Below the pieces are notes generated by a model. That model made no database searches. It was not told the DNA's origin and was given only the letters and a program-made list of their open reading frames with translations. Of a stretch of DNA of 32,000 nt, positions 2,440 to 23,218 are shown in pieces (the stretch's first letter is position 1; every line of letters begins with the position of its first letter). A program made the position numbers and the translations under genes. The DNA comes from Methanocaldococcus jannaschii DSM 2661 (lineage in GTDB: Archaea > AGJL01 > Methanococci > Methanococcales > Methanocaldococcaceae). Location of the stretch: contig NC_000909.1 of NCBI RefSeq assembly GCF_000091665.1, positions 1,434,118 through 1,466,117 on the forward strand. The letters are read 5' to 3'.

Positions 2440-2889
2440 ATGAACAAAAACAAAATAAAAAAAAGGGGACAGTTATCTGTTGATTTTGTACTTGCAATAT
2501 TATTTTTAATGTTGGTTTCACTGTTTATTTATTACAATGCACTTACATTTACAAATAACACTACGGATGCTTTGATAGTGGATAGGATGTACAGTATAGC
2601 CGATACATTTGAGAACTATGCAATCCTTTCATATACAAAAAATGAAACAATAGTTTTGAAATTAAAACCTATTGGAGATTTGGGGTATGTAATACATGTC
2701 TCGAATAAAATTATTAATGTGAGTTATAAAACCCTTATCGTATTTACCCCAACAGATAACGGTGTCATAATTTCTGGAAGCAATATAGAAACTGCCCCAG
2801 TTGATATTGGAAAAAATATAAGCATAACTGTGACTATTGATAAAAATAATATAACAATATGTAAAGAATTGACAATAAATATAACTTAA
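2440..2889 (+). CDS. Class III signal peptide (type IV pilin-like) protein
   Basis: The ATG at 2440 is preceded by aaagagg. N-terminus [10 protein letters not shown]|[22 protein letters not shown]: basic n-region, Gly at -1, Gln at +1, acidic residue at +5, then a hydrophobic helix (DUF361/UPF0333-like). The upstream GTG start at 2335 would lie almost on the IS end and adds a low-complexity extension. Confidence 0.7.
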
Positions 2890-2906
2890 AATTTTGGTGG
2901 GTTATT

Positions 2907-5900
2907 ATGAAACTTTTAAAGATTTTAATGCCATTAATCATTCTTGGTATAATTTCAATAGTAAATGGATATGTTATTGTGATACATCCTAACACTATGA
3001 ACATAACTAACAGTTCTGGAGTTTATAACACAGACCCCAATATCATTGCATACAATGTAAATGACACGATAACATTTGAAGCTTTAGCCCCCGATTCTGT
3101 AGCTCAGGATATATTAGATAATGGAGTTGTTAAATGGGATTTTGGTGACTTAACTGAGACTGATTATGGGAATTATAGAACAACCACCCATACATATACA
3201 TTTCCATTTCCTTATCCAGTAGCATGGTGCGGTTATCTAAATAATACTGGCTATTCGAAAGCTTTAACTTACAACTGGCTTGTTGTTGGAGATGTAGCAA
3301 ATACTAAGTATGTATTTAATGGCAGTCCGTTGAATTCAAAGACAAGTTGGGAGGTCTATTATAATAGCACAAATAATACTGTTATAATAAAATATTACTC
3401 AGAAACCCCTGTTGATAGGGAGTTTAATGGTTTAAGTGTTGATACAACTTCAGTAACTGTAAATGTTAGCAGAGATGAAATTGTAGAAGGAGATACTGTT
3501 AAATTTAATTTTTCAGTTAGTAGAAATATAATATTCTGTGTATGGAGTTTTGGAGATGGAACTTTTTCCTTTGAAAAATTTCCAGAACATACATATACAA
3601 AGTCAGGGCTTTATTATCCAAGAGTTTTAGTTGTTGATGATTCTGGAAGGGTAATGGTTGGATATTTGGATGAAGGAATTGAAGTAAAAAGAGCAAGAGG
3701 GGGGTATATTTACTGGGTTACAGGACCAAGTCACTATGATGGAGAGGCATACACTTATGTATATAATAGCTCTGGAGATGACAATAATAATAATGGAAAT
3801 GCATACACTGACCCATATAAAATAACCTATAAAGTTAATGACACTATAAAATTTGAAATGAGTGGAGCTTGGGGAGAATATTGGAAGTGGGATTTTGGAG
3901 ATGGAACAGAAACTCCTTATACATATAAGTCTTACTTTACTCCATCATATCATCAATATAAGTTTCCATTTATGTGGCCGTTCTTCTGGATGAGTTATGG
4001 GTGGGGTAGTTGGTGGAAATCAGATACCCTCAACTTTATAGTAGTTGACGATGTAGAAAACACAAGATATAATTTTTACCCTTCATCTGCTCATGATAAA
4101 ACTTACTATGATTATGAATATAATAAAGAAAACCATACGGTTAATTTATACTACTATTCAGATGTAATTTCGACTCCAAAATTTAATGTAAAATTGAGAG
4201 ATGGATATTATATAGATATAACAGCAACTGCTGACAAAACTCAAGTTAGTGTAAATGAAAACGTTAGATTTGATTGTTCGCCTTATGGAAATCCAATATT
4301 TATAATGTGGTGTTTTGGAGATGGGACATGTTCATTTGAAAAAAGCCCTACTCATAGATATTCTTCAAGTGGACTATACTATCCTCATGTATTCGTTATA
4401 GATGATAATGGAAATATAGAGGTTGGAATTCCACCACCAATTGGAGTTGGAGGATACAGCAGTTATCCTCAAATTTATGCTTCTCCTACAATAGCCCCTA
4501 CTTACTATCCAATAAATATAACAATAGTAGAGCCGGCATCGTGGACTTGGTATTGGCATCATATATATTTCGGAGATGGTGGCAGTGTTTGGATAAAACC
4601 CAAAAAATCGCCATATACTTTCACACATACATACACTTCAGAAGGGGTTTATCCAATATATATGAAAGTTTATACTGCAGAAAATATGAAAACAGTATAT
4701 GTAATAGACAATAAAAACCCAATAGCCAAACTCTATATTTATCCAAATCCTGCAAGTTATAAAGATACAATTTCCTTTAGTCCAATAAATAGTTATGACC
4801 CAGATGCTAATAGAATGATTCCAGAGTATAATTACTACGGCACCTTAATAGGGTATTATCCTATATCTCCAAACTCACCCATGGCAAGAATATATGGATT
4901 TAACTTAACAGTTTATGATTCTAATGGAAATGTTGCATGGAATTACTCATCAAATGAATTAACTATTATATCCAAAAGTTTTCCTATAGGGAATTACACT
5001 GCTAAATTGGTAGTTTGGGATGGAATGGGAGGAGTTAATTCAACAACTGTTAAGTTTAGTGTGATAAATAGACCTCCTGTGGCTCAATTTATATACTATC
5101 CAGATAAACCTGAACCTAATGAGGATGTAGAATTCGTTTCCCAGTCTTATGACCCGGAGGGTGAAATTGCATATTACATTTGGAATTTTGGAGATGGGAC
5201 CGTTATCAATACAACAGATACGATAGTTCATCACAAATATGAAAGACCAGGCTACTATACAGTTACCTTAACAGTATTTGACAAATATAACGCAAGTAGT
5301 TCAATATCAAAACAAATAGTAGTTGGGGGTATATTAGCTAACTTTACATATGAAATAATAAATGAAAATACTGTAAGATTTGAAGATACATCAGTTGTGG
5401 CCCCTGGGAAAATAATTAGTTGGCACTGGGACTTTGGAGATGGCAGCACATCAACAGAACAAAATCCTATCCATACTTACAGCAAGGAGGGGGCATACTT
5501 TGTAACCTTAACTGTTAAAAGCGATACAAACTTAACGGATAGTGTAACAAAGATTGTTATAATTTCTCCACCTCCAAAATATCCTCCAGTTGCTGACTTT
5601 ACGTATAAAGTAATAAATGGAACTACTGTAGAGTTTAACGCTAATTTATCATACGATGAAGATGGATATATTAAATATTATATCTGGGACTTTGGAGATG
5701 GAACACCAGCAAATACAACAACAAATCCAATTATAATACACAAATATAAAAAAGAGGGGGTTTATCCAGTTACCTTGACAGTTATAGATAATGATAATCT
5801 TTCAGATTCAAGAACTAAGTTAATAAATATAGGAGAATCATTTATACATAGCGTTCCAATACCGCCATATATTGAGATATTGATAGTTATTTCAACAATA

Positions 5901-5936
5901 TTCTGTTTCTTCCAAATTATAAGGGGATTAAAATGA
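2907..5936 (+). CDS. Large secreted surface protein with >=8 PKD-like domains and a C-terminal sorting signal
   Basis: 1009 aa. N-terminal signal peptide [21 protein letters not shown]. Recurrent PKD signature W-x-FGDG-[ST] (WDFGDL, WSFGDGT, WDFGDGT, WCFGDGT, YFGDGG, WNFGDGT, WDFGDGS, WDFGDGT). C-terminus [27 protein letters not shown]: Pro-rich motif, TM helix, basic tail. Many N-x-S/T sequons. Confidence 0.9.
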
Positions 5937-6160
5937 AACCTAAAAAAATAATATCTAATAAAGCTCAAATATCATTAGAATTGGCATTATTGTTAGGTGC
6001 TCTTGTAGTTGCAGCATCTATAGTTGGATTCTATTATCTAAAATCAGTTACGAGAGGGACCTCTACAGCAGAAAGTATTTCAAAAAATATAACCTTAGCT
6101 GCAAAGAATAAAGCATTGGACAATATATACAAAGTGAAGAGGGCCTTAAATGGGCAATAA
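5933..6160 (+). CDS. Small type IV pilin-like protein (class III signal peptide, UPF0333/DUF361-type; resembles Methanococcus EppA-dependent pilins)
   Basis: 75 aa. [11 protein letters not shown]|[25 protein letters not shown]. Start overlaps the upstream stop (ATGA at 5933-5936), implying translational coupling. Confidence 0.85.
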
Positions 6161-6614
6161 AAATGCTATATACATACTTAGATTTTTAATATATTTTTTT
6201 ATATTTTATTACATTTTAAAAATGTTAGAAGGAAACATAATGGACTTATTAACAATAACCCTATCTAAACTTTTAAATTTGAAATTTTACAAGAATGAAA
6301 TTATAGTTGGCAAAAATATTATAGAGATTAGCTCACCATGCACATGTTCATTAGAAATGGCTTTATTTTTAGGTTATATCTTTGGGACTCCTGATGTTCC
6401 TATTAAATATAAAATCTCATATTCAGTATTTGGACTTTCAATTATTACTATCTCAAATATTTTGAGGATAATATTAATAATAAATTATTCAAATATGATA
6501 AATTATAATGTAGTTCATGATGTCATAAGTTTTATTATCTTCCCAATAGCTTTGTTCCTGAACTGGTTTTGGATATATTTATTAAAAATGAAAAAAATAA
6601 TTATGTTTAAATGA
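6150..6614 (+). CDS. Small polytopic membrane protein, exosortase/archaeosortase-family-like
   Basis: 154 aa with about 4 TM segments. Ordered Cys...Arg...His in hydrophobic context ([16 protein letters not shown]; [12 protein letters not shown]; [14 protein letters not shown]). Cys-to-Arg spacing is about 40 residues, as I recall for the family. Encoded next to a protein carrying a tripartite C-terminal sorting signal. Alternative starts exist at Met25 and Met31. Confidence 0.55.
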
Positions 6615-6624
6615 GGGATGGCAT

Positions 6625-8499
6625 ATGTTTAGAAAAATTGTTTCAAAAAGAGGGTATATATTTACTTATGAGGCAATAGTAATTGCCTTCATTTTCTTGA
6701 GTGTTTTTTATATAGGGTATATGGTTTATAGTCATAATATGCTCACAGCATTAGAGGAAAAGAAGGATACTGAAAAATTTCATAAAGCTTTGTTACTAAA
6801 AGATTATTTTTTAAGGAATAATAAATTTCCTGGAAAGTTTTATAACAAAACATATTTGGATAATTTTACAAATGAATTAGATATTAAAGAAAAAACTTTC
6901 GACTTATTTAATAATTTTAGTGAATATAAGGGATTGATTCGTTTTATAATTTATCCAAACATATATGATGAAGAACTTGACAACATTTCAGACGAAATTT
7001 GTGCAAATGATGGACTTCAGGCTATAACATATAATTTCAGTAGCAACACATTTAAAATTTATTCAAATGTAAATACTACATTTAACAACGCCAACCTAAG
7101 TATAAGTGGGATGGATTTAATTTACTTTAAAGAAAATGTATATATTCCAAAAATTACTGGAATGAAATATGGAGATTCTATAAATCTATATGGCTGTAAT
7201 GGAGACCACATTTACTTTAAAGTCAATAGCGAAATTATTTCAGCATCTGCGAGGGTTGTTACAAATAATGGTAATCCATTTATTACTTGGCAGAATTGGA
7301 GGTATGCTACTCCAATATTAATAATAAACAACCTAAATCAAAATTTAAATGATTATGATGTAAAAATTGTTTTTGATTCTCAAAGTTATATAAATTCTGG
7401 AGAGATGAGAACAGATTGTGGAGATGTAAGGTTTGTTGATGAAGATGGTAATCCATTAAGTTATTGGATAGAGCCAAATACAATAGATACTCCGCATACT
7501 GTCGCCTGGGTTAAGGTAAATTTAGCTCCAAATGAACATAAGCTAATATATATGCTTTATGGAAATCCAACAGCTACAACGACTGCAAATGGAGATAATA
7601 CCTTCCCCCTATTCTTTGATGATTTTTCTAAAGGTAATTTGGATAATACAAAATGGACTTACAACTTTAATAATCCATTATTTGTAAATGACACTTATCC
7701 AAATGGGATTAATTTTACTTATTTAAGTTTAGATTATACTTATTACAATAATCATAATTACATTATTTATGATATTAATAATACGCATATTTCCTCCATT
7801 AGTACATACTATCCAAATACTTCTGTAAGATTCCATGCAAATTTCCATAAGAAATATGAGGAGTGGGGCGGATTTTATATAAACATAAATGGAAATGACT
7901 ATAACAGAGAGGTTATAACTAACTATCACTGGGGAGGAGAGTGGCTAAGAGCTGAATCTTCTGTATTAAATCAAGATTACGATAGTTACATTATCTTACA
8001 AGACCCAGATTTATACGATAATTGGCACACTTATGAGATTCAAAGAGATGGAGGTAGTTCAGTGAATTTCATAATAGATGATGCCATATATAAAACCATA
8101 TATTCAAACATATATACTGGAGATTTACCAATTTCATTCTATGCAAGAAAATATGATTATTCAACAAAATATGGTTACTATCCTGTTCCTCAAGACGAAC
8201 AAAACGGAAATATTAGCATTGATTGGGTATTTGTTAGAAAGTATGTAGAACCAGAACCAACAGTAACGCTTCTATCTTCTGATGTCATTTTTACAGTAAA
8301 TGGATATATATACAAAAAACCATTAAAATCAGTATTTGACAATATAGATATAACTCCAAATTTAAATGTGGGGATTAATGAAATAAGGATTTTAAGCTCA
8401 CCTCTTCCAGTAGAGTTTTTAATTAAAACAAATGAAAACACTGATTTTTACTATTTAACACTATCACCTAACAATGTCACCATTGTGGTGAAACCATGA
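6625..8499 (+). CDS. Pilin-like-anchored DUF2341 + ConA-like lectin/glucanase-fold protein
   Basis: 624 aa. N-terminus [10 protein letters not shown]|[22 protein letters not shown] looks like a class III signal. The central segment [11 protein letters not shown]...[17 protein letters not shown]...VAWVKVNL...LYGNP matches my recollection of DUF2341. It is followed by [17 protein letters not shown] ... [11 protein letters not shown], typical of LamG/ConA-like beta-sandwich boundaries. Confidence 0.8.
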
Positions 8500-9032
8500 T
8501 TAATAGCGTTGATTTAGCAATTGGAACTGCCATTCTTCTCATAGGGATGGCATATTGGACAGTATCTATTGTCGAACATAACAACAATTATGTGGATATT
8601 GTAAAATCTGATTATATTTTTGATAAAGGAATAAGCACTATGGAACATCTATCAGAGGATGGAACTTTGCAAGATGCTGTTCTTTTATATTATTTTGATA
8701 GAGTTAATGATTCAAAAAAACTTTTAGAGGAAAGAATTCCACTTAAACATTATCTTCTTTATATAGATAATAACCTTCTAATAAATAAATCCAATGGGGT
8801 TAATAATAGTAATAGTGTATATATTTTAACAGTTTTAACTTTAAACAGAAGTGAAGGGTGGTATGTAATTTATGGAAATGAGGACTTTGTAAATATATCC
8901 AAGGAGAGGTTTCTTGACTATGATGACGCCTATAATTATCTAAAATATAGAAACTACGATATACATATGCCTGTGTATCTTTCAAAAAATGTATCCTCTT
9001 CAAGGGTTGAATTATATATATTAGGAAATTAA
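8496..9032 (+). CDS. Hypothetical membrane-anchored protein of the surface operon
   Basis: 178 aa. N-terminal hydrophobic helix [31 protein letters not shown] start/stop overlap with the upstream gene. No recognisable domain. Confidence 0.65.
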
Positions 9033-9042
9033 GGGGATTGCC

Positions 9043-10677
9043 ATGTATTTCTCTCAAAATGCGATAATTTTAGTTATGCTAATGTTTGTGATATCTGCAG
9101 TGTTTTATGCAACAATTGATTACAAAACAAAGGAAGTAGAGGATGAAATAAAAATAAAAGAAGTAAGTTTATATGAAAAAAATTTAATAAATACTATAGA
9201 TAGAAATATAGATAAAATTGTAGAAGATGCCTTTGTAAATGCAAGCTATAAAATAATGAAAGAACGAAAATTTTTTACAGCTTCAAGTGAGGCAGTTGCG
9301 TATATAACCAGCTATATAAAAAATGAAACGAAAGAATCACTAAATAATGTGAATTATGGCTACTCAAATATATCCTATAACATTAGTTCTGTTAAAATTT
9401 CACCTACATACGACCCATTAGTAGTACATTTATATTGTGAAATTGACATAAAATATTCAAAAAAATTAAATAATGGTGAGTTAATCGCATTAAAGCCAAT
9501 AGTCATCAACAGAGACATAAAATTATCAAGAATTCCTGACCCATATGTCTATTTAAATAAATTTTACTACACCTGGGGTTATGAAAAAAAGATAAATATA
9601 TATAATTTTCCAAATGATAACTACAACCGTACTTTCTGTATAATATTAAATAGTAGTAACTTTAACTATAGTGAAATGCATAACCCTCAATCTCCAACAG
9701 AGCTGAGAGTAATTGGCTGGGATTCAGTAAGTAACAAAATTATTCTTTTACCTTACTGGGTTCAAACCTGGAGAGAAGGAAATAACGATGTATCAGTAAT
9801 TTGGGTTAGAGCAAATAAAAATGAAATTTACAACTACAATAATGGGCAGGGGTATATATACATACTCTACAATTCAACTACTCCGGTAGATAGACAAGAC
9901 CCAGAACACACATTTATATTCTTTGATGATTTCAATTACTTTAACCCAGATAAATGGGATTCTGTTGGATACTTTATCATAAATAATAGTAAAATAACGG
10001 TAATTGCAGGAGCAGGTTCAAGCGTATATACAAAACAAACTTATGGAACTAGATATGAATTAATATTTAGAGCAAACTTTACTCCATCCCATGCCCAAAC
10101 TATAGGATTCTTTACACAATTAAGCGATAACGATGGAGTGGGTTGGGATATGTATGATTGGACTGGAAATAATCCAGAACTTTATATGAGAGTTGGATAC
10201 AGTGGAAGTGATATTGGGGATTATGTTCCTAATTCAAATAAATACTTAAATAAATTTTATATTTATGATTTAAAAAGAATTTCAACCACTGACTTAAACT
10301 TTACAATATTTAATGACACTTTGGATATTGAATATAGCAACTCATTTACTAATGGAAATAAGGGAAATAACTATCCAATTTCAATAACTGCTCTTATAAA
10401 TTTAAATACTAATGTTACAGTGGATTGGATATTTTTAAAAGATATAAATGATATTACAACTACCGTCCCTCCAATAGGTGTTGATGAATATCCAAATCTC
10501 GACTATAAAGAAGAAAAACCAAAAACATTTACTGGGACTATATACTATGGAGAACCAGGGAAATATATATTGGTCTATAATAGTACGTATTCTATCATTG
10601 GATTATATACTAACAAAACTGACTACTGGCTTTATCCAAATATGCCAGGATATAAACCACTTATAGAGGAAAATTAA
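9043..10677 (+). CDS. Membrane-anchored DUF2341 + ConA-like lectin-fold protein (paralog of 6625-8499)
   Basis: 544 aa. N-terminal TM helix NAIILVMLMFVISAVFYATI. Segment WGYEKKINIYN...LRVIGWDS...LPYWVQTW...VIWVRAN...ILYNST is parallel to the DUF2341-like core of the 624-aa protein. Then IFFDDFNYFNPDKWDSVGY ... VTVDWIFLKDI. Confidence 0.8.
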   Translation: MYFSQNAIILVMLMFVISAVFYATIDYKTKEVEDEIKIKEVSLYEKNLINTIDRNIDKIVEDAFVNASYKIMKERKFFTASSEAVAYITSYIKNETKESLNNVNYGYSNISYNISSVKISPTYDPLVVHLYCEIDIKYSKKLNNGELIALKPIVINRDIKLSRIPDPYVYLNKFYYTWGYEKKINIYNFPNDNYNRTFCIILNSSNFNYSEMHNPQSPTELRVIGWDSVSNKIILLPYWVQTWREGNNDVSVIWVRANKNEIYNYNNGQGYIYILYNSTTPVDRQDPEHTFIFFDDFNYFNPDKWDSVGYFIINNSKITVIAGAGSSVYTKQTYGTRYELIFRANFTPSHAQTIGFFTQLSDNDGVGWDMYDWTGNNPELYMRVGYSGSDIGDYVPNSNKYLNKFYIYDLKRISTTDLNFTIFNDTLDIEYSNSFTNGNKGNNYPISITALINLNTNVTVDWIFLKDINDITTTVPPIGVDEYPNLDYKEEKPKTFTGTIYYGEPGKYILVYNSTYSIIGLYTNKTDYWLYPNMPGYKPLIEEN

Positions 10678-11613
10678 TTATATTTTTATTAATTTAGTTG
10701 CTTCAACCATATTCTTTAACTTATTAAAAGCGACGTCTATTGGCAATAACCTCATTCCACAATCGGGGTCTATTAAAATATTATCAGACAAATTTTTATT
10801 CAATTTTTCATTGTTTTTTAATATTTCAATTCCCTCTTCTATCAAGCTTTTTATCTCTTCAACACTTTCAACTTTCTTAACTTTTGTATTTACACAACCA
10901 AAGCCAACTTTCTTTTCCATACTTTCTAAAATCACCAAATTTTTTTTATTTGAAGCAAATTCATGGTCTAAAATATCCACATTAAACTTATTTAACTCAT
11001 CAATAATATTATAAACATTCCCACAAACATGCATGGCAAATTTAATATTTAATCCATCAACTATTATATCAATAGCCTTCCTTGCAACATCAAAATCATA
11101 CATACCAGTTGATAGTATCGGCTCATCAATCTGTATTATTGGGACATGCTTTTTTAATGCTTCAACTTCCTTTCTAAGGGCTTTAGCAATATCATAAATT
11201 AGATTCTCATCTCTATTGTCTGAATAACAACTCTCAACTCTAACAGATGAAGCTATAGTGCAAGGCCCTGTAATAATTCCTTTAATTTCAACATTAGGAT
11301 TGAGTTTTTTGGCTATACTTTTAGCGTATAAAATATCTTTTAGTGTTATTGGTTTTATAAACTCCACTCTACCAACAACTCTCTTCCCATCAAAGCCATA
11401 CATGTTGTTTGTGAAAATCTCAACCATATCTCCTCTAACCTGTCCATCACTTATAATATTAACTCCAGCTTTAACCTGGTCTTTAACAGCCCTCTCTATG
11501 GCATATTTATATTCATCATACAAGCCAAATACCTTTTTTACCTTATCTAAGAATGTTTCTTCCTTTTTAACTACTGGATAACTACCAACTACAGTTGTTA
11601 TCATTGCCACCAC
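10678..11613 (-). CDS. MetE-like (cobalamin-independent methionine synthase catalytic-domain family) methyltransferase, short archaeal form
   Basis: 311 aa. N-terminus TTVVGSYP and the later HVCG / DPDCG zinc-ligand-like motifs are typical of the MetE C-terminal-domain family. The start could be Met1 or Met4. Confidence 0.8.
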   Translation of the reverse strand: MVAMITTVVGSYPVVKKEETFLDKVKKVFGLYDEYKYAIERAVKDQVKAGVNIISDGQVRGDMVEIFTNNMYGFDGKRVVGRVEFIKPITLKDILYAKSIAKKLNPNVEIKGIITGPCTIASSVRVESCYSDNRDENLIYDIAKALRKEVEALKKHVPIIQIDEPILSTGMYDFDVARKAIDIIVDGLNIKFAMHVCGNVYNIIDELNKFNVDILDHEFASNKKNLVILESMEKKVGFGCVNTKVKKVESVEEIKSLIEEGIEILKNNEKLNKNLSDNILIDPDCGMRLLPIDVAFNKLKNMVEATKLIKI

Positions 11614-11684
11614 CAGAATTTTATAAATTATGGATTATTAATAAATCTCCTTATCAGTTATTTAACATTTATAGGAGTGGAATC

Positions 11685-12188
11685 ATGAAGGTTAAGGTGT
11701 TGGATGCTTCAGCTATTATTCATGGATACAACCCAATTATAGAGGAGGGGGAACATTACACAACCCCAGAAGTTTTGGAAGAGATAGAATCAAAAAAAAT
11801 TATTGTTGAACAAGCATTAGATTTTGGAAAATTAAAAATAATGAGTCCTAATAGGGAGTATATAAAAAAGGTTGAAGAAGTTGTTAAAAAAACTGGAGAT
11901 AATTTGTCTCAACAAGATATTGGTGTCTTAGCTTTAGCTCTAAATTTAAACGCCATATTATATACTGACGATTATGGCATTCAAAATGTAGCTAAAAAAT
12001 TAAATATTGAAGTTAGGGGAATAGCTTTTGAACCAACAAATAAAGATTTTATTTGGAGAAAGATTTGTGAAGGTTGTAAAAAACTTTATCCAGTAGATTA
12101 TGAAGAAGATATATGTGAGATTTGTGGTAGCCCTTTAAAGAGGAAGATGGTTAAATCGAGATTAAAGAAGAAAAGGAAGAAAAAATAA
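11685..12188 (+). CDS. PIN-domain + C-terminal zinc-ribbon endonuclease, Nob1-like
   Basis: Start moved to the ATG at 11685 (RBS taggagtgg upstream). The longer ORF from 11595 overlaps the divergent gene. PIN-like N-terminus MKVKVLDASAII...TDD. Zn ribbon CEGCKK...CEICGS. Lys/Arg-rich tail. Confidence 0.75.
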   Translation: MKVKVLDASAIIHGYNPIIEEGEHYTTPEVLEEIESKKIIVEQALDFGKLKIMSPNREYIKKVEEVVKKTGDNLSQQDIGVLALALNLNAILYTDDYGIQNVAKKLNIEVRGIAFEPTNKDFIWRKICEGCKKLYPVDYEEDICEICGSPLKRKMVKSRLKKKRKKK

Positions 12189-12309
12189 CTTATAAGAGGC
12201 ACTGCCGAGTGAAACGAGGCAGTGCATCCCGGGTATACCAATAGGGCGAAGCCCTATGGAGAGAAAGATGGTTAAATCGAGGTTAAAGAAGAAAAGGAAG
12301 AAAAAATAA
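12129..12309. repeat. Direct duplication of the Nob1-like gene 3' end (about 60 bp, period 121 bp) flanking a GC-rich hairpin island
   Basis: 12144-12188 and 12265-12309 are 45-bp copies with 1 mismatch, and weaker similarity extends back to 12129 and 12250. The intervening 12189-12249 is locally GC-rich. It has an 8-bp stem (12199-12206 with 12218-12225) and a 7-bp stem (12241-12247 with 12251-12257, GAA loop). Confidence 0.85.
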
Positions 12310-12324
12310 GTAAGTGATTGTATT

Positions 12325-12702
12325 ATGAAAAAATTAATAGCAAAAACAAAGGAAGAATTGATTGAAAAAATTAAAGAATGTGAAAATGAAGAAGAGATTT
12401 ATATAAACTTAGAGTTAGATAGGGATGTAGCTATTGCTTTATTGGAAAGTTGTGAGCCAAAGAAGATATATTTACCAAAATCAAAATATAAAAGAAGCTC
12501 AAAAAAGATTATAAAGGCTTTGGAAGGAGTTGATGTCGAAGTTATTCCAATAAAGGCAAAGACTGGAAGACCTACGAATGTAGATAAGATTATTAAAAAG
12601 TATTTAGATAAAAAACCTAAAGAAATAGCTGAAATTACTGGGATTAATATAAAAACCGTTGAGTACCATTATTATAAGCTGAAAAAGAAGGAAAAACAGT
12701 GA
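12325..12702 (+). CDS. Hypothetical protein with C-terminal helix-turn-helix-like segment
   Basis: 125 aa, highly charged. PKEIAEITGINIKTVEYHYYKL resembles a small HTH. The stop overlaps the next gene. Confidence 0.65.
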   Translation: MKKLIAKTKEELIEKIKECENEEEIYINLELDRDVAIALLESCEPKKIYLPKSKYKRSSKKIIKALEGVDVEVIPIKAKTGRPTNVDKIIKKYLDKKPKEIAEITGINIKTVEYHYYKLKKKEKQ

Positions 12703-12707
12703 TAATA

Positions 12708-13391
12708 ATGATTTCTGTCATCTTAGTTAATCCAAAATACAGTGGAAATGTTGGTAGTATAGCAAGGGTTATGATGAATTTTGGATTTGAAGAGCTTAGA
12801 ATAGTTGGAGATAAAAGCATAATAAATAATGAAGCCTATATGATGGCAGTCCATGCAAGAGAGATTTTAGACAATGCCAAATTCTACAACACCTTTGATG
12901 AAGCTATAGGGGATTTAGATTTTGTTATTGCCACTTCAGGAGCAAGAGGAGGAGATAGAAATTTAAAGAGAGTTCCAATAACACCAAAAGAGTTGGCAGA
13001 TAAAATCTTAGAGGTTAAGGGAAACATTGGGATTGTCTTTGGTAGGGAAGATGATGGATTGAGAAATGAAGAGATAGATAAATGTGATTTGTTAGTTTCA
13101 ATACCAACATCTGAAAAGTATCCAATTATGAACCTATCTCATGCTGTTGCAGTTATTTTATATGAGATTTATACAAAAAAAGTTAGAAATAAATTTTTAG
13201 ATATAAATATGAGAGAGGCATCAAAAGAGGACAAAGAGCTATTGATAAGGAAATTTAATGAGTTTATTGACAAGAATGAAAAAATCCCAGAGCATAAAAA
13301 AGAACTCTGCAAAATAATCTTTAAGAGATTGGTTAATAGGGCTTTTATAAGTGGAAAGGAGGCATGGACGTTAATGAGTGCATTTAAATAA
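12708..13391 (+). CDS. trmJ: SpoU (TrmH/TrmJ) family RNA 2'-O-methyltransferase
   Basis: SPOUT motifs NVGSIARVMMNFG, IVFGREDDGL and IPT...YPIMNLSHAVAVILYE. An alternative GTG start at 12699 overlaps the upstream stop. Confidence 0.85.
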   Translation: MISVILVNPKYSGNVGSIARVMMNFGFEELRIVGDKSIINNEAYMMAVHAREILDNAKFYNTFDEAIGDLDFVIATSGARGGDRNLKRVPITPKELADKILEVKGNIGIVFGREDDGLRNEEIDKCDLLVSIPTSEKYPIMNLSHAVAVILYEIYTKKVRNKFLDINMREASKEDKELLIRKFNEFIDKNEKIPEHKKELCKIIFKRLVNRAFISGKEAWTLMSAFK

Positions 13392-13407
13392 AATTAGGGG
13401 AAAGAAC

Positions 13408-15338
<1,931 letters not shown>

Positions 15339-15510
15339 TTATCGTTTATCGTGCTTTTCAAAATTAACTGCAATTTTTAAGGTAAGAATATAAAAGTCTT
15401 TGGTTTTATAAGTGCCTTTTCTATAGTAAGTTTTTTGTAACGCACTATAAGTATTCGATATATAACACTTCAAACATATAAAAAAATAGAACTCTATTTT
15501 AAGAGTAAAG

Positions 15511-15518
15511 TTTATATA
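15511..15518 (+). promoter_or_regulatory. Archaeal TATA box (TTTATATA) for the aminotransferase gene
   Basis: Exact match to the methanogen TATA consensus, preceded by a purine-rich BRE-like agtaaag. It lies 68 nt upstream of the ATG at 15586. Confidence 0.45.
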
Positions 15519-15585
15519 CTACTGGGATAATGGTAAATTACACAAAAGTGTCATACAAAATAGAGTTCCATTTTGAGATGAAAAC

Positions 15586-16884
15586 ATGAGGAATCCTATA
15601 ATAGATGTAGGGGCTAAAGAATTGAGTTATGAAATTAGGGAGATTGTAGATGTAGCTAAAAAAATAGAAGAGTTTGGAATAAACATAACATGGGAAAACA
15701 TAGGAGACCCAGTGGCTAAAGGGGAAAAAATTCCAGATTGGATTAAAGATATTATAGCAGAGATTGTTAAAAACGACTGTTCTTATGCCTACTGTCCTAC
15801 TAAAGGTTTATTAGAAACACGAGAATTTTTAGCCGAACAAGTAAATAAAAGAGGAGGAGTTCAGATAACTGCTGAAGACATCATATTCTTTAACGGCTTA
15901 GGAGATGCCATTGCAAAGATTTATGGTTTATTGAAGAGGCAGGTTAGAGTTATAAACCCATCCCCATCATACTCAACCCATTCTTCTGCAGAGGCATCCC
16001 ATGCTGGCTCTCCTCCAGTAACTTACTTCTTAGACCCTTACAACTACTGGTATCCAGACATTGATGATTTGGAGAAGAGGATTAAATACAACCCAGCAGT
16101 TAGTGGAATTTTGGTTATAAATCCTGACAACCCAACTGGAGCAGTATATCCAAAAAAAATCTTAAATGAGATTGTTGATTTAGCCAATGAATATGATTTA
16201 TTTATTATTTGTGATGAAATATACTGTAACTTAGTATATAATGGGAAAAAACAGCATTTACTATGTGAGGTTATAGATGATGTCTGCGGTTTATCTTTAA
16301 AGGGTATATCAAAAGAACTTCCATGGCCAGGGGCAAGATGTGGATGGATTGAAATTTACAATGCCGATAAGGATGAAGAATTTAAAAAATACGTTGAGAG
16401 TATTTATAAAGCCAAATTGATAGAGGTTTGCTCCACTACATTGCCACAAATGGCTATTCCAAGAATTATGGGGCATAGAAATTACAAAAAATACTTAGAG
16501 GAGAGGAATAGGTTCTTTGAAAAAAGGTCAAACACAGCCTACAAAAAACTAAAAGATTTAGATGGTGTTATAGCAAATAAAGCCAATGGAGCTTTCTATA
16601 TGTCTGTTGTATTTGAAGATAACTATTTAAATGGAAACAATTCAATAAAAATAGAGAATGAGAAATTGAAGGAATTTATAGAACACCAAATAAAAGATGC
16701 ATCTATAGATAAGAAATTTGTTTATTATCTCTTAGCATCTACTGGAATCTGTGTAGTTCCTCTAACCTCATTCTGCTCTCAACTTAACGGATTTAGAGTT
16801 ACATTGTTAGAGAGAGATGACGAAAAGTTTGAATGGATATTTGACACATTAGCTGAAAAAATAGATGAATTTTTAAAGACCTAA
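15586..16884 (+). CDS. Class I/II PLP-dependent aminotransferase (alanine/aspartate aminotransferase family)
   Basis: 432 aa. PLP-lysine region LKGISKELPWPGARCGW (S-x-S-K...G-x-R-x-G pattern). NPDNPTG motif. Confidence 0.9.
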   Translation: MRNPIIDVGAKELSYEIREIVDVAKKIEEFGINITWENIGDPVAKGEKIPDWIKDIIAEIVKNDCSYAYCPTKGLLETREFLAEQVNKRGGVQITAEDIIFFNGLGDAIAKIYGLLKRQVRVINPSPSYSTHSSAEASHAGSPPVTYFLDPYNYWYPDIDDLEKRIKYNPAVSGILVINPDNPTGAVYPKKILNEIVDLANEYDLFIICDEIYCNLVYNGKKQHLLCEVIDDVCGLSLKGISKELPWPGARCGWIEIYNADKDEEFKKYVESIYKAKLIEVCSTTLPQMAIPRIMGHRNYKKYLEERNRFFEKRSNTAYKKLKDLDGVIANKANGAFYMSVVFEDNYLNGNNSIKIENEKLKEFIEHQIKDASIDKKFVYYLLASTGICVVPLTSFCSQLNGFRVTLLERDDEKFEWIFDTLAEKIDEFLKT

Positions 16885-17270
16885 TCTCTCAAATGCCTAT
16901 AAAACCATGGCTCTTCATAATTTTTTAAATTTTTAACATAGGGGCAGTCTTTTGGAAAAACACCAGCTAAGATTCCTTCCATTACAGTTAAGCATCTATG
17001 TTTAAACCTATCTTTATAAACTTTACATAATTTTGTTTCTGGGTCTAAATGCTCACAATATATTGTTTTAATTCCATCTTCAGTTTTGTAAGCGTGTAAA
17101 ATGCAACATCTTCCACATCTCTCACATAACTCATCAGGAAATAGCTCTTCACTTATTTTTATCGCTCTATCTTTTTTAAATCTTAATGTATGCAAATTAT
17201 CCCTCTTTGTAAAGTAGATAAAAATTGGATTAAAAACTGTCAAAATAGTATATAAAGGTTTTGATGACAA
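16881..17270 (-). CDS. YkgJ/UPF0153-type cysteine-cluster protein
   Basis: CERCGRCC plus downstream Cys residues (CEHL, CKVY, CLT, CPY). The ORF has no N-terminal ATG, so the predicted start is TTG (17268-17270) and the true start is uncertain. Confidence 0.6.
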   Translation of the reverse strand: MSSKPLYTILTVFNPIFIYFTKRDNLHTLRFKKDRAIKISEELFPDELCERCGRCCILHAYKTEDGIKTIYCEHLDPETKLCKVYKDRFKHRCLTVMEGILAGVFPKDCPYVKNLKNYEEPWFYRHLRD

Positions 17271-17329
17271 TTGTTAAATACTTCATCATCGTTAATTAAT
17301 CCTAAGATAACATTTATTGGGGGATTTTT

Positions 17330-18601
17330 ATGTTCATGAGAGAAATTGAATTGAGAGGGCATATTATTGACAGCTTAATCCTGCCTAAGGTTTTTGATAA
17401 AATCTTAGATATGGGCGGAGATTATAAAGTTTTAGAGTTTGAGATTGGGAAGAGAAAAACAGACCCAAGTTATGCAAAGATATTGGTTATTGGTAGAGAT
17501 GAAAGGCATGTAGATGAAATATTGAATGAGTTGAGGGATTTAGGAGCTGAGATTCCAGAGATTGAAGAGGTTGAGTTACAGCCAGCTGAGAAGGATATGG
17601 TCTTACCAGAGGGCTTTTATTCAACAACCAATCATAAAACATTTATTAGGTTCAAAGGCAAATGGATAGAGGTTGAAAACCAAAAAATGGACGGAGCTAT
17701 CGTTGTTTATCCAGATGAAATGAGGGCTGAAGTAAAGACAATAAGAAATATCAAAAAAGGAGATTTAGTTGTTGTTGGGCATAAAGGGGTTAGAGTCATC
17801 CCTCCAGAAAAACCAAGAGAAGGAGGGGGGTTATTTGAGTTTATGAAATCAGATGCCTCCTCAGAAAAGCCTAAAGAAACAATTATTAGAAGAATAGCTA
17901 AGGAGATGTATGAGATTAGAGAAAAATATAGAAAGACAGGTAAAGGAGGAATTGTAGTTGTTGGAGGTCCGGCTATAATTCACACTGGAGCTGGATGGGC
18001 TTTAGCTAAGCTTATTAGGATGGGGTATGTTCAAGCACTATTTGCTGGAAATGCCTTAGCTACTCATGACATAGAGAGCGTTTTATATGGGACATCTTTA
18101 GGAGTTGATTTAAAGACTGGAAAGAGCGTTCCAGGAGGGCATAGTCATCATTTAAGGGCTATAAATACAATAATGAGGGCTGGAAGCATAAAAGATGCTG
18201 TAGAGCAGGGAATTTTAAAGGAAGGAGTTATGTATGAGTGTATAAAAAACAACATTCCTTATGTTTTAGCTGGAAGTATCAGGGATGATGGCCCATTACC
18301 AGATGTTATTACAGATGTTGTTAAAGCTCAGGAAAAAATGAGAGAGCTTTTAAAAGGAAAGGATATGGTTCTAATGCTTTCTACTATGCTACACTCAATA
18401 GCTACAGGTAATTTATTACCTTCATGGGTTAAAACCATCTGCGTTGATATAAATCCAGCGGTTGTAACAAAGTTAATGGATAGAGGGACATCACAAGCTT
18501 TGGGGATAGTTACTGATGTTGGTGTCTTTTTACCAATGCTTGTTGAGGAGTTGGAAAAATTAGAGAAAGAAAAGGAAAAATCTGAAAAGAGAGAAGAATA
18601 G
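17330..18601 (+). CDS. LOR/SDH bifunctional-enzyme conserved-domain family protein (archaeal ornithine cyclodeaminase-like)
   Basis: 423 aa. Family assignment comes from overall sequence recollection ([22 protein letters not shown], Glu/Lys-rich tail). An alternative start exists at Met3. Confidence 0.7.
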
Positions 18602-18612
18602 AGGAGGAGAAG

Positions 18613-19254
18613 ATGAGAGTTGAATATTCAAAGGATTTGATAAGAAAGGGAATTTCAACTATTTCCCAACTAAAAAAAGCTAAAATAAGAGTAGAAAAGG
18701 ATGATAAAAAAATATCCTACAAAGATGCAAAGCCAGGGAAGATAGATGTCAATGAATTTAAAAAAGCTATTTATTTGTTGATTGAGGCAGATGACTTCTT
18801 ATATAAAAAAGCCCCAAAGCATGAGTTGAATGAAGAGGAAGCTAAAGAGTTCTGTAAATTGATTATAAAATGCCAAGAACATTTAAATAAAATCTTAGCT
18901 AACTTTGGGTTTGAATTTGAAGAAAAAGAAATAGATGAAGGTGCATTATACATTGTCTCAAATAAAAAGTTATTTAAAAAGCTTAAAAACAAAAATCCTA
19001 ATTTAAAAGTTGTATGCACTGAGGGAATGTTAGATATTGAAGATATGAGAGCTATAGGCGTTCCAGAAAAAGCATTAGAAGGATTAAAGAAAAAGGTTGA
19101 GATAGCACGAAAGAATGTTGAGAGATTTATAGAAAAATACAAACCAGAAAAAATTTTTGTTGTGGTTGAGGATGATAAAGATGAACTTCTCTATTTGAGG
19201 GCTAAAAATCTTTATAATGCTGAAAAATTGGATGCTGATGAAATTTTAGATTAA
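18613..19254 (+). CDS. Conserved hypothetical protein, methanogen-type
   Basis: 213 aa, charged and soluble. An 11-nt gap upstream and a 14-nt gap downstream suggest co-transcription. No motif recognised. Confidence 0.7.
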
Positions 19255-19268
19255 ATTTCGGTGGAATA

Positions 19269-20198
19269 ATGGATTTGCAGAATGATATTATTGTGAGGGG
19301 AAAATCCTATGAGATGCCATTTTCAAAGGGTATTTTGGCAAGGTCTTTAACAGCCGCTGGATTAAAACCAAGTATTGCCTATAGAATAGCCTGGGATATA
19401 TACGAGATGTTAAAAAAGGAAAATATCAGAGTTATAGATAAGGCTGATTTGAGGAGGAGAGTTTATTATTACTTAATTTCAAAAAATTACGATGAAGTTG
19501 CTAAAAAATATCTACTATGGAGAATGGTTTTAGGAAGAAGACCGATAGTTATCTTAATTGGTGGAGCGAGTGGTGTTGGAACTTCAACTATTGCCTTTGA
19601 GATAGCTTCAAGATTGGGTATTCCAAGCGTTATTGGAACTGATTCTATAAGGGAAGTTATGAGAAAGGTTATATCAAGAGATTTAATCCCTACACTTTAC
19701 GAATCAAGTTATACAGCTTGGAAGGTTTTGAGAGATGATGAGGGCAATAAATACATTAAAGGGTTTGAGAGGCATTCTGAGGCAGTATTAACTGGAGTGG
19801 AAGGAGTTATAGATAGATGCTTAGTTGAGGGGCAGAGTGTAATTATCGAAGGAACTCACTTAGTCCCAACACTTTTAAAAGATAAATATTTAGAAAATTC
19901 CCATGTAGTTTTTATTATGCTAACAATCTACAATGAAGAGTTGCATAAAATGAGATTCTACGCAAGGGGAAGAGTTTCAAGCAGACCTACTGAGAGGTAT
20001 TTAAAATACTTTAAAATCATTAGAATGATAAACGATTACATGGTTGAAACTGCAAAAAAGAAGGGAATTCCAGTGGTTGAGAATATAAAGATTAGTGAGA
20101 CTGTTGATAAATGTTTGAATATAATTACCGAAAGATTGAAAACGATGATTGAGTTAGAAGGGCTGAGTGAGGAAGATATGTTAGAAGAGGGATTATAG
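19269..20198 (+). CDS. 2-phosphoglycerate kinase
   Basis: 309 aa. P-loop [10 protein letters not shown]. Overall similarity to the archaeal 2PGK family as I recall it. Confidence 0.8.
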
Positions 20199-20214
20199 GC
20201 TGGAGTTGATTAAT

Positions 20215-20664
20215 ATGGACAAAACTCTTTCGGTTATTGTTTTTTTGATTTCTTTAATTATAATTTTTGGAATCTACTTTAGCTCATCAAATTTTAGTTT
20301 TAAAAAGGTAGAGATAAACAAAAGCACAATAAATGACTTTGGAGATGAAAATATATTAACTTTTGTTCCAGAAGTTTGTGATAGATTCTATTATGAAAAA
20401 GACGGATTTGATTGGGAACGGAACATCAACAATATAGAAACTGTTATAATAGGTAGTGATGCAGTAGTAATAGAAAAAGGAGATTTCAATGAAACAGAAA
20501 TCTTAAAAGAACTTATAGAAAATGGCTACTCTGTTGAAAGTTGTAGGGGCGTTTATTATTACAAAAATGAAAAAGCACTCTCTGACAGATATATTATTGT
20601 TGGAAATAACTTAATAATTAAAGCGAATGATATTTCTGGGATTAGATGGAGATATTTACAATAA
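20215..20664 (+). CDS. Hypothetical membrane-anchored protein
   Basis: ATG at 20215; the ORF track starts at a TTG at 20206. N-terminal TM helix LSVIVFLISLIIIFGIYF. No recognisable domain. Confidence 0.6.
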   Translation: MDKTLSVIVFLISLIIIFGIYFSSSNFSFKKVEINKSTINDFGDENILTFVPEVCDRFYYEKDGFDWERNINNIETVIIGSDAVVIEKGDFNETEILKELIENGYSVESCRGVYYYKNEKALSDRYIIVGNNLIIKANDISGIRWRYLQ

Positions 20665-22597: not shown

Positions 22598-23218
22598 ATC
22601 TCCATTCCGAAACGGTCTTATTTTAATAATAAATGACGTTGCAGTTGCATACAAGTTTTTAGTTAAATTATATTTCCATTCCGAAACGGTCTTATTTTAA
22701 TTATTTTAATTTTAATAAAATTTTTACAGATAAAAATGGAGGAGATAAGTTTCCATCCTCCAAGAGGTCTGATTTTAACTAAAGATGCACAAGGTTATCA
22801 ATTAGTAATAGTAAATGAAGATACTTCGTTTCCATCCTCCAAGAGGTCTGATTTTAACAAATGAATTTAGTTATGATTATCATAGCAGATTGTTTAACGT
22901 TTCCATCCTCCAAGAGGTCTGATTTTAACCGTTTAATGCTTATATTGCCGTGAAAGGTAAGAGCGGGCAGATTTCCATCCTCCAAGAGGTCTGATTTTAA
23001 CATTATTCATAATAACACCAGATGAAGCTGAAAAATTGATAAAACAGATTTCCATCCTCCAAGAGGTCTGATTTTAACAAAAATTTATATACTACCAATA
23101 CACTTATAATATACTTGTATTTCCATCCTCCAAGAGGTCTGATTTTAACACGAATTATTTAACAAAATATTTAGTAAAAGCATTTAAATTTCCATCCTCC
23201 AAGAGGTCTGATTTTAAC
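22598..23218 (-). CRISPR. CRISPR array, 9 repeats of two families; no cas genes in the window
   Basis: Two 30-bp repeats begin at 22598 (atctccat...) and 22672 (atttccat...) and share the remainder tccgaaacggtcttattttaat. Seven 31-bp repeats ([ag]tttccatcctccaagaggtctgattttaac) begin at 22749, 22828, 22899, 22971, 23048, 23119 and 23188. Spacers are 38-48 bp and all different. Minus-strand orientation is inferred from the ...GGATGGAAA[C/T] 3' end and the leader position. Confidence 0.93.

Follow-up and report, generated by a model that had tools for sequence, protein, structure and literature searches.

We analyzed a stretch of 32,000 nucleotides (nt) of the chromosome of the archaeon Methanocaldococcus jannaschii DSM 2661 (contig NC_000909.1, positions 1,434,118 to 1,466,117), hereinafter the window, which contains a predicted operon of seven tightly packed open reading frames (ORFs) on the + strand, between positions 2440 and 10677. 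These genes, denoted here g1 to g7, had been described in an earlier note on the same DNA as contiguous same-strand genes with short gaps and overlaps, and both the coordinates and all six junctions match that description. The genes, with the lengths of their products in amino acids (aa), are the following:

2440-2889, + strand: g1, 149 aa, followed by a 17-nt gap before g2
2907-5936, + strand: g2, 1009 aa, with a 4-nt ATGA overlap with g3
5933-6160, + strand: g3, 75 aa, with an 11-nt overlap with g4
6150-6614, + strand: g4, 154 aa, followed by a 10-nt gap before g5
6625-8499, + strand: g5, 624 aa, with a 4-nt ATGA overlap with g6
8496-9032, + strand: g6, 178 aa, followed by a 10-nt gap before g7
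9043-10677, + strand: g7, 544 aa, the last gene

The operon consists of a four-gene module of Epd pilus subunits (g1, g5, g6 and g7) and a separable three-gene archaeosortase D (ArtD) module (g2, g3 and g4). All three proteins of the latter score above the curated NCBIfam cut-offs for, respectively, the PIP-CTERM sorting signal, the "archaeosortase D/PIP-CTERM system-associated" class III protein, and archaeosortase D itself. The g2 protein can be predicted to be a Sec-exported adhesin with PKD repeats that serves as cargo in the archaeosortase D system: it contains an N-terminal signal peptide, seven WxFGDG motifs, six stretches matching the Pfam PKD_4 model (E=9e-83), a single C-terminal transmembrane helix and, at its last 27 residues, a PIP-CTERM signal (TIGR04173, 49.8 bits against a cut-off of 30). 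The g3 protein is a small class III pilin-like protein with an 11-residue leader followed by QISLEL, and is recognized both by the Pfam Class_IIIsignal model (36.3 bits, cut-off 23.7) and by the dedicated family TIGR04205 (122.8 bits, cut-off 65). The g4 protein matches the archaeosortase D model TIGR04175 with 235 bits against a cut-off of 125, the next-best model, ArtE, scoring 49 bits, under the ArtE cut-off of 95; it is 100% identical to the protein that is named archaeosortase D of M. jannaschii by NCBI and UniRef. The functional sites within these genes are:

5853-5933, + strand: PIP-CTERM sorting signal of g2, aa 983-1009, comprising SVPIP, a transmembrane helix and RGLK at the C-terminus
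6339-6341, 6465-6467 and 6516-6518, + strand: candidate catalytic residues C64, R106 and H123 of g4, from the alignment

The three candidate catalytic residues are invariant across 28 ArtD sequences, and a Kyte-Doolittle scan of g4 reveals three to four hydrophobic segments. A search with the ArtD profile retrieved 31 clusters, of which the taxon-labelled ones all belong to Methanococcales (Methanocaldococcus species, Methanotorris igneus and Methanothermococcus okinawensis); a sequence search of the PDB with the same profile matched no solved structure. The cargo gene lies directly upstream of the artD block in M. jannaschii, an arrangement that is kept in 10 loci, with g3 located between the cargo gene and artD and overlapping both in all 10. 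The cargo tail, S-[VI]-P-[VI]-P followed by a transmembrane helix and a basic end, is conserved in these 10 loci, and the passenger domains differ by species: PKD in most, beta-helix/CARDB/PKD in M. igneus and DUF2341/CARDB/PKD in one metagenome-assembled genome (MAG). In g3, the invariant residues across the 10 loci are Q+1, S+3, E+5 and the motif GFYY[LIV]K; the predicted mature protein of about 64 residues consists of a pilin-type helix that ends in this motif, a Ser/Thr-rich stretch and a short helix.

The earlier note had identified in this operon a PKD surface protein with a C-terminal sorting signal and a minimal archaeosortase, and both assignments hold. Hidden Markov model searches with each product likewise bear out the domain calls for g2, g3, g4, g5 and g7; g1 and g6 match no family. 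The further claim that no described system combines pilin-type subunits with an archaeosortase-anchored adhesin cannot be maintained, the trio being already curated in NCBIfam/TIGRFAMs. A review (PMC6098224), citing Haft et al. 2012, lists ArtD as one of the archaeosortase subfamilies. We found no mention of PIP-CTERM in the open full-text literature, where archaeosortase D is mentioned only in passing, once in each of three papers.

The other four genes correspond to the Epd pilus locus of Methanococcus maripaludis, which comprises 11 genes, mmp0231-mmp0241, on one transcript (PMC4187195). In that organism, eppA, epdA-C, mmp0234 and mmp0239-0241 are reported to be essential for piliation, mmp0235 and mmp0238 encode dispensable secreted proteins that have been proposed as possible tip adhesins (PMC4187195), and mmp0239-0241 along with epdA-C were hit in transposon screens for natural-transformation defects (PMC10133366). 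The M. maripaludis locus that we used for comparison starts with a zf-like gene, an EppA-type peptidase, a class III protein of 129 aa, a DUF515 protein, a protein of 297 aa and a class III protein of 138 aa, and ends with proteins of 149 and 172 aa, a DUF2341 protein of 623 aa, a g6 homologue of 174 aa and a DUF2341 protein of 596 aa; this is the published 11-gene Epd layout, and the transposon map (PMC10133366) shows the same order DUF2341 gene-epdH-epdI, with consistent gene sizes. BLASTP comparison of g1, g5, g6 and g7 with the proteins of this locus yielded collinear best matches. The g1 protein matches that in the epdC position (44% identity, E=1e-25); g6 aligns over its full length with the 174-aa protein in the epdH position, between the two DUF2341 genes (32%, E=7e-25); g5 matches the DUF2341 protein in the mmp0239 position (45% at the N-terminus and 31% in the DUF2341 region, E=1e-17); and g7 matches the 596-aa protein in the epdI position (26% over 318 aa, E=2e-7). 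Each pair shares an N-terminal signature across the order (arrow, class III cleavage site): [KR][GA]↓Q-x-S-x-D in g1/EpdC, [KR]G↓Y[IV]FTYEA in g5/MMP0239, MI(F/N)(D/S)xDL in g6/EpdH and MY[FL]SQ in g7/EpdI.

By homology and synteny, g1 is an EpdC-type minor pilin. It carries a class III signal, with a 10-residue leader followed by QLSVDF, and the motif [KR][GA]↓Q-x-[ST]-x-D is conserved in 10 orthologues; no Pfam or NCBIfam family matches it. In hhalign comparisons with the class III N-terminal profile of g3, g1 scores 93%, the same as EpdB, EpdA scores 96.5% and g5 a weak 29%. Of the two class III signal peptides that had been read from the letters alone, that of g3 is recognized by Pfam itself and that of g1 by its similarity to the g3 profile. 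The g5 protein is a large pilin-like protein with a 10-residue leader followed by YIFTYEA and an N-terminal helix, its cleavage-site motif being conserved across species including M. maripaludis. The modules of the two large proteins are:

7414-7662, + strand: DUF2341 of g5, aa 264-346 (Pfam PF10102, 98.1 bits, cut-off 23.4)
approximately aa 327-545 of g5, + strand: ConA/GH16-like jelly roll, from the AlphaFold model and Foldseek
9727-9963, + strand: DUF2341 of g7, aa 229-307 (Pfam PF10102, 60.1 bits, cut-off 23.4)

The AlphaFold model of g5, with a predicted local distance difference test (pLDDT) value of 78, consists of a long N-terminal helix, a beta-rich N-domain, DUF2341 and the jelly roll. 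The jelly roll, for which pLDDT exceeds 85 over most of the domain, resembles glycoside hydrolase family 16 (GH16) structures in a Foldseek search (E ~1e-6, probability 1.0, target TM-score at most 0.62); a PDB sequence search with the g5 profile matched nothing. The GH16 catalytic motif ExDx(x)E is present neither in the jelly-roll region of g5 nor anywhere in g7. The absence of this motif rules out g5 as an active glycosidase; the jelly roll is therefore lectin-like. The g5 and g7 proteins are distant paralogues (23% identity over 351 aa, E=7e-7), and from this paralogy a jelly-roll fold can be predicted for g7 as well. The N-terminal membrane helix of g7 starts with MYFSQNAI, and the MY[FL]SQ start is conserved in 11 species. 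The earlier description of two paralogues that combine a pilin-like helix, DUF2341 and a ConA-like domain is therefore correct with regard to DUF2341, the paralogy and the g5 fold, but g7 lacks a class III leader. The g6 protein has an N-terminal membrane helix and no leader (MINSVDL); in its AlphaFold model (pLDDT 74), this helix is accompanied by three further helices and a beta domain. When g6 was compared exhaustively, by phmmer, with 1.84 billion representative proteins, only 5 clusters were retrieved, of which the 3 that are taxon-labelled come from Methanothermococcus, Methanococcus maripaludis and M. voltae, all Methanococcales. The DUF2341/jelly-roll unit is missing precisely from g5 and g7 of M. 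fervens (locus coordinates 10531-13008; 294 and 350 aa) and from g5 of M. igneus (locus coordinates 10456-11274; 272 aa). The lectin-like modules are gained and lost as units on a conserved scaffold.

DUF2341 proteins have been considered in a pilus context before. Makarova et al. 2016 reported proteins of this type (arCOG03508) in the clade 1 Methanococcales pilus and proposed that they are PilY1-like tip adhesins; archaeosortase is unmentioned in that work. The entries GI 15669659 and 15669662 in Table S5 of that study probably are g2 and g5, as suggested by the spacing of the numbers. The open literature contains no match for MJ1468, MJ1469, MJ1471 and MJ1472, and MJ1470 occurs there solely as a label for the DUF2341 domain family, in one paper and its preprint.

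Comparison of gene neighborhoods strongly supports the division into two modules. The genes of the operon are syntenic in nine other loci of Methanococcales that have different flanking genes, a result that answers the question of gene co-occurrence raised by the earlier note in the affirmative, and this arrangement is far beyond chance. The order of all seven genes recurs in two Methanocaldococcus MAGs, one further MAG, M. okinawensis and M. fervens, and in M. villosus the blocks are permuted yet adjacent (g5-g6-g7-g1-g2-g3-g4). In Methanotorris igneus, the cassette lies within a complete eppA-epd locus, between the epdC and mmp0239 orthologues, in the order eppA-epdA-DUF515-...-epdB-g1-[cargo-g3-ArtD]-g5-g6-g7. 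This locus is headed by an EppA-type gene (Peptidase_A24 and Arc_PepC), corresponds to the M. maripaludis locus in every gene, with the same flanks, and bridges the two layouts. The genes eppA, epdA, epdB and that for the DUF515 protein, which in M. igneus and M. maripaludis are upstream of the genes found here, are absent from the M. jannaschii window.

Two genomes separate the modules. In Methanococcus aeolicus, the order is g1-g5-g6-g7, with a 157-nt gap at the cassette site and flanks as in M. okinawensis; in M. indicus, the trio cargo-g3-ArtD (locus coordinates 6788-10459) stands alone, with no g1, g5, g6 or g7 within 10 kb. The existence of pilus genes without the cassette in M. aeolicus and of the cassette alone in M. 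indicus indicates that the cassette is an autonomous, separable unit. In 9 of the 10 loci, it is found among pilus subunit genes, and by homology and synteny it fills the slot between epdC and mmp0239 that is held by MMP0238 in M. maripaludis.

Three additional observations pertain to these loci. MMP0238 (mmp0238 position, locus coordinates 7599-8117) ends with KLPISSDV, a transmembrane helix and RRKG, that is, with a tripartite, sorting-signal-like tail; its interpretation as a degenerate PIP-CTERM protein is not supported, TIGR04173 giving no match. The M. maripaludis locus contains no ArtD gene. In one Methanocaldococcus MAG, just upstream of the operon (locus coordinates 3470-5965, - strand), there are two divergent proteins of 513 and 282 aa with weak matches to the class III signal, which may be additional pilin-like proteins. 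In M. fervens, an archaellum operon that encodes archaellins, FlaC, FlaD/E and others (15087-20480) follows the Epd/ArtD operon at a distance of about 2 kb on its downstream side; the M. jannaschii window shows no such arrangement.

The other features of the window include:

1624-2326, - strand: IS6-family insertion sequence (IS) with the transposase at 1631-2275, not part of the system
2430-2434, + strand: Shine-Dalgarno-like GAGGT, separated by 5 nt from the ATG of g1, read from the sequence
1317-1411: inverted repeat of 15 nt (spacer, 65 nt), in the non-coding DNA that separates thrC from the IS
13378-14418, same strand as the operon and about 2.7 kb downstream of it: membrane-anchored homologue of GH114-family glycoside hydrolases (Pfam, 101 bits)
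22598-23218: CRISPR array with at least 9 repeats, matching Rfam CRISPR-DR39 and DR13 at gathering score, with no cas genes in the ORF list of the window

Apart from the GH114-family protein, which could be tied to the surface or to an exopolysaccharide, and the CRISPR array, the remainder of the window consists of housekeeping genes. Genes for a pilus ATPase, a platform protein or a prepilin peptidase are absent from the entire window, as the earlier note had observed of the locus with regard to FlaI/PilB-type ATPases, FlaJ/PilC platforms and prepilin peptidases. We place the start of g1 at ATG 2440, because this codon is preceded by GAGGT and fits the N-termini of the orthologues; the same Shine-Dalgarno-like sequence and the short leaders of the orthologues rule out GTG 2335, the start given by the ORF finder. 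The IS6 element is complete, with a transposase that scores 150.8 bits with NF033587 (cut-off 125) and 16-nt terminal inverted repeats at 1624-1639 and 2311-2326, and its end is 113 nt upstream of g1. It is not present in the orthologous loci and thus is specific to M. jannaschii, where its insertion may have replaced the native upstream region of the operon. The operon had been said to be flanked by an IS, which is accurate for the upstream side only. On the right-hand side, M. jannaschii, M. villosus and M. fervens have the same flanking genes (Meth_synt_2 and PIN), the latter two species being without the IS.

In composition, the operon proteins are enriched in Asn (9.5% against 5.0% in the other window proteins) and Tyr (8.9% against 4.1%), and contain 68 N-x-S/T sequons compared to 37 expected from their composition (about 1.9-fold), that is, 24.9 against 3.7 per 1000 aa; the other window proteins contain 23 sequons compared to 26 expected, with no excess. 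The richness in Asn, Tyr and sequons that had been pointed out previously is thereby borne out, but that in Ile is ruled out (10.4% against 10.6%).

Taken together, these observations make it probable that the operon represents the distal half of the Methanococcales Epd type IV pilus locus, the half that encodes subunits, into which a three-gene ArtD cassette is inserted, and that it functions along the following lines. An EppA-type prepilin peptidase encoded elsewhere in the genome would cleave the class III leaders of g1, g3 and probably g5, and the filament would be assembled by EpdJ/K/L-type ATPase and platform proteins that also would be encoded elsewhere. Assembly by machinery outside the locus had been suggested already, and is in accord both with the gene content of the window and with M. 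maripaludis, where the pilus ATPase and platform genes likewise lie outside the Epd locus (PMC4187195). The g1, g5, g6 and g7 proteins could form a priming or tip complex, in which the heavily glycosylated, non-catalytic DUF2341 and jelly-roll modules of g5 and g7 would act as binding surfaces. The PKD adhesin g2, exported by Sec, would be held by its C-terminal transmembrane helix until ArtD, with the invariant Cys, Arg and His near the outer face of the membrane, cuts at SVPIP and moves the adhesin to a new anchor. By analogy with ArtA, for which archaeosortase-dependent C-terminal processing and lipid anchoring have been described (PMC7157517; PMC6098224), this anchor might be a membrane lipid, such that the adhesin would be displayed on the cell surface beside the pilus.

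Several points weigh against this scheme. Outside the N-terminus of g5, the orthology of g5 with MMP0239, as well as that of g7 with EpdI, is founded mainly on synteny, the similarity being low. The genes for EppA, the ATPase and the platform were not seen within the window, which is the sole M. jannaschii sequence covered. The g6 protein matches no Pfam or NCBIfam family, and a Foldseek search with its model retrieved no significant counterpart from the PDB (best E=0.19); it may be either pilin-like or a platform protein similar to PilN/PilO. In both g6 and g7, the hydrophobic helix begins at residues 1-5, with no basic leader, no G/A cleavage site and no class III motif, and hhalign gives less than 1% for either protein against the g3 profile and non-significant values of 2.9% (g6) and 41% (g7) against the g1 profile; instead of being part of the fibre, these two proteins could act in its assembly as membrane-anchored factors. 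The lectin-like inserts are not essential to the scaffold, given that M. fervens and M. igneus have versions without them. The ArtD/PIP-CTERM system is known by annotation only, as are the M. jannaschii proteins of the operon. Finally, lipid anchoring of the adhesin leaves the obligatory presence of g3 in the cassette unexplained.

This last point is the strength of a different proposal, in which ArtD is a pilin-directed transpeptidase: the adhesin, cut at PIP, would be joined covalently through its C-terminus to g3, for example, to the invariant Lys of GFYY[LIV]K, and g3 would enter the Epd pilus and display an exchangeable adhesin. Such a role would account for the presence of g3 in every ArtD cassette, overlapping between the cargo gene and artD even in the stand-alone cassette, for the existence of a dedicated g3 family (TIGR04205), and for the location of the cassette among pilus subunit genes in nearly all loci; moreover, the g3 Lys, the PIP motif and the ArtD Cys, Arg and His are all predicted, under the positive-inside rule, to lie at the outer boundary of the membrane, and ArtA systems have no such pilin partner. 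Nevertheless, the only archaeosortase that has been studied anchors its substrates to lipid (PMC6098224; PMC7157517), Lys is frequently found after membrane helices and may be unrelated here, and the M. indicus cassette resides away from pilus genes, so that we consider covalent transfer to g3 unlikely. If true, a type IV filament would for the first time be seen to carry a sortase-like covalent decoration, and a function would be assigned for the first time to an archaeosortase other than ArtA. Less plausible still, and in our view improbable, is a cell-envelope module whose link to the pilus is only genomic, with g5 and g7 as S-layer-associated or surface lectins on N-terminal helices, g6 as a membrane organizer and g2 anchored to lipid. 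The absence of class III motifs from g6 and g7 would be compatible with such a module, as would the fact that the ArtA substrates are S-layer and envelope proteins (PMC6098224; PMC7157517), but the M. maripaludis genes mmp0239-0241 are reported to be required for piliation and to be co-transcribed with eppA and pilin genes (PMC4187195), and the [KR]G↓Y class III-like site of g5 is conserved in all species.

The earlier note favored a free-standing, undescribed adhesion-fibre system encoded by an accessory, IS-associated surface module, a view to which the proximity of the IS6 element to g1, the variation of the flanking genes between genomes and the lack of assembly genes in the window lend some appeal. 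It is, however, already largely refuted, and we regard it as very improbable. The components belong to curated families or are syntenic homologues of known Epd genes, with g1, g5, g6 and g7 being collinear with epdC, mmp0239, epdH and epdI, and in M. igneus the operon is physically within the eppA locus. Furthermore, g6 is single-copy across Methanococcales, which implies that the operon is the organism's own EpdH set and part of its core pilus equipment rather than an accessory duplicate. A mobile or accessory island is excluded by the single-copy status of g6, together with the one-sided location of the IS, its restriction to M. jannaschii and the right flank that is shared with M. villosus and M. 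fervens.

The interpretation of the operon as an Epd subunit module with an inserted ArtD cassette does not amount to a new kind of system, all the components being already in databases. It assigns genes of M. jannaschii to the Epd pilus, the M. maripaludis homologues of which matter for piliation and natural transformation, and defines the interval between epdC and mmp0239 as a variable adhesin slot which contains MMP0238 in M. maripaludis, nothing in M. aeolicus and, in the thermophilic genera, a PKD, beta-helix or DUF2341 cargo with ArtD. The ArtD/PIP-CTERM system itself gains a biological context, its cassette being usually embedded among Epd pilus subunit genes, yet separable from them. 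In the open literature searched, we found no description of the ArtD cassette as a plug-in at the Epd adhesin slot. Because a genetic system has been published for M. jannaschii (PMC6616113), the questions of the ArtD acceptor and of the role of the pilin-like partner are testable in the host itself.

Among the known systems with which the operon can be compared, the sortase-assembled pili of Gram-positive bacteria are alike in concept only, in that a membrane Cys transpeptidase is encoded among the genes for fibre subunits and adhesins; there is no homology, type IV filaments are non-covalent, and covalent coupling in the present case would be purely hypothetical. The minor-pilin/PilY1 tip complex of Pseudomonas aeruginosa resembles it in having low-abundance pilin-like proteins and large adhesins that are encoded together and needed for piliation, and Makarova et al. 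2016, who draw the PilY1 analogy, report DUF2341 in PilY adhesins. However, the P. aeruginosa complex includes no archaeosortase, the large archaeal proteins bear their own pilin-like N-terminus, and DUF2341 is the only sequence link in this comparison. The ArtA/PGF-CTERM system of Haloferax volcanii shares with the cassette the conserved Cys, Arg and His, the tripartite C-terminal signal and, as predicted for ArtD, the C-terminal processing of Sec-exported surface glycoproteins. It differs in that ArtD is a small protein of about 150 aa, is paired with a PIP rather than a PGF motif, has an obligatory class III pilin-like partner, is confined to Methanococcales in the profile search and has one dedicated adjacent cargo, compared to one to 52 predicted substrates in genomes with ArtA (PMC6098224). 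With the archaeosortase D/PIP-CTERM system (TIGR04175, TIGR04173 and TIGR04205) there is no difference at all, g4, g2 and g3 being full members. The Epd locus of M. maripaludis differs in that the M. jannaschii half is split from eppA, epdA, the DUF515 gene and epdB, and in that the mmp0238 slot is occupied by an ArtD cassette, which the M. maripaludis locus lacks; the two agree in the homology and order of g1, g5, g6 and g7, in the N-terminal signatures of these proteins and in the presence of two large DUF2341 proteins.

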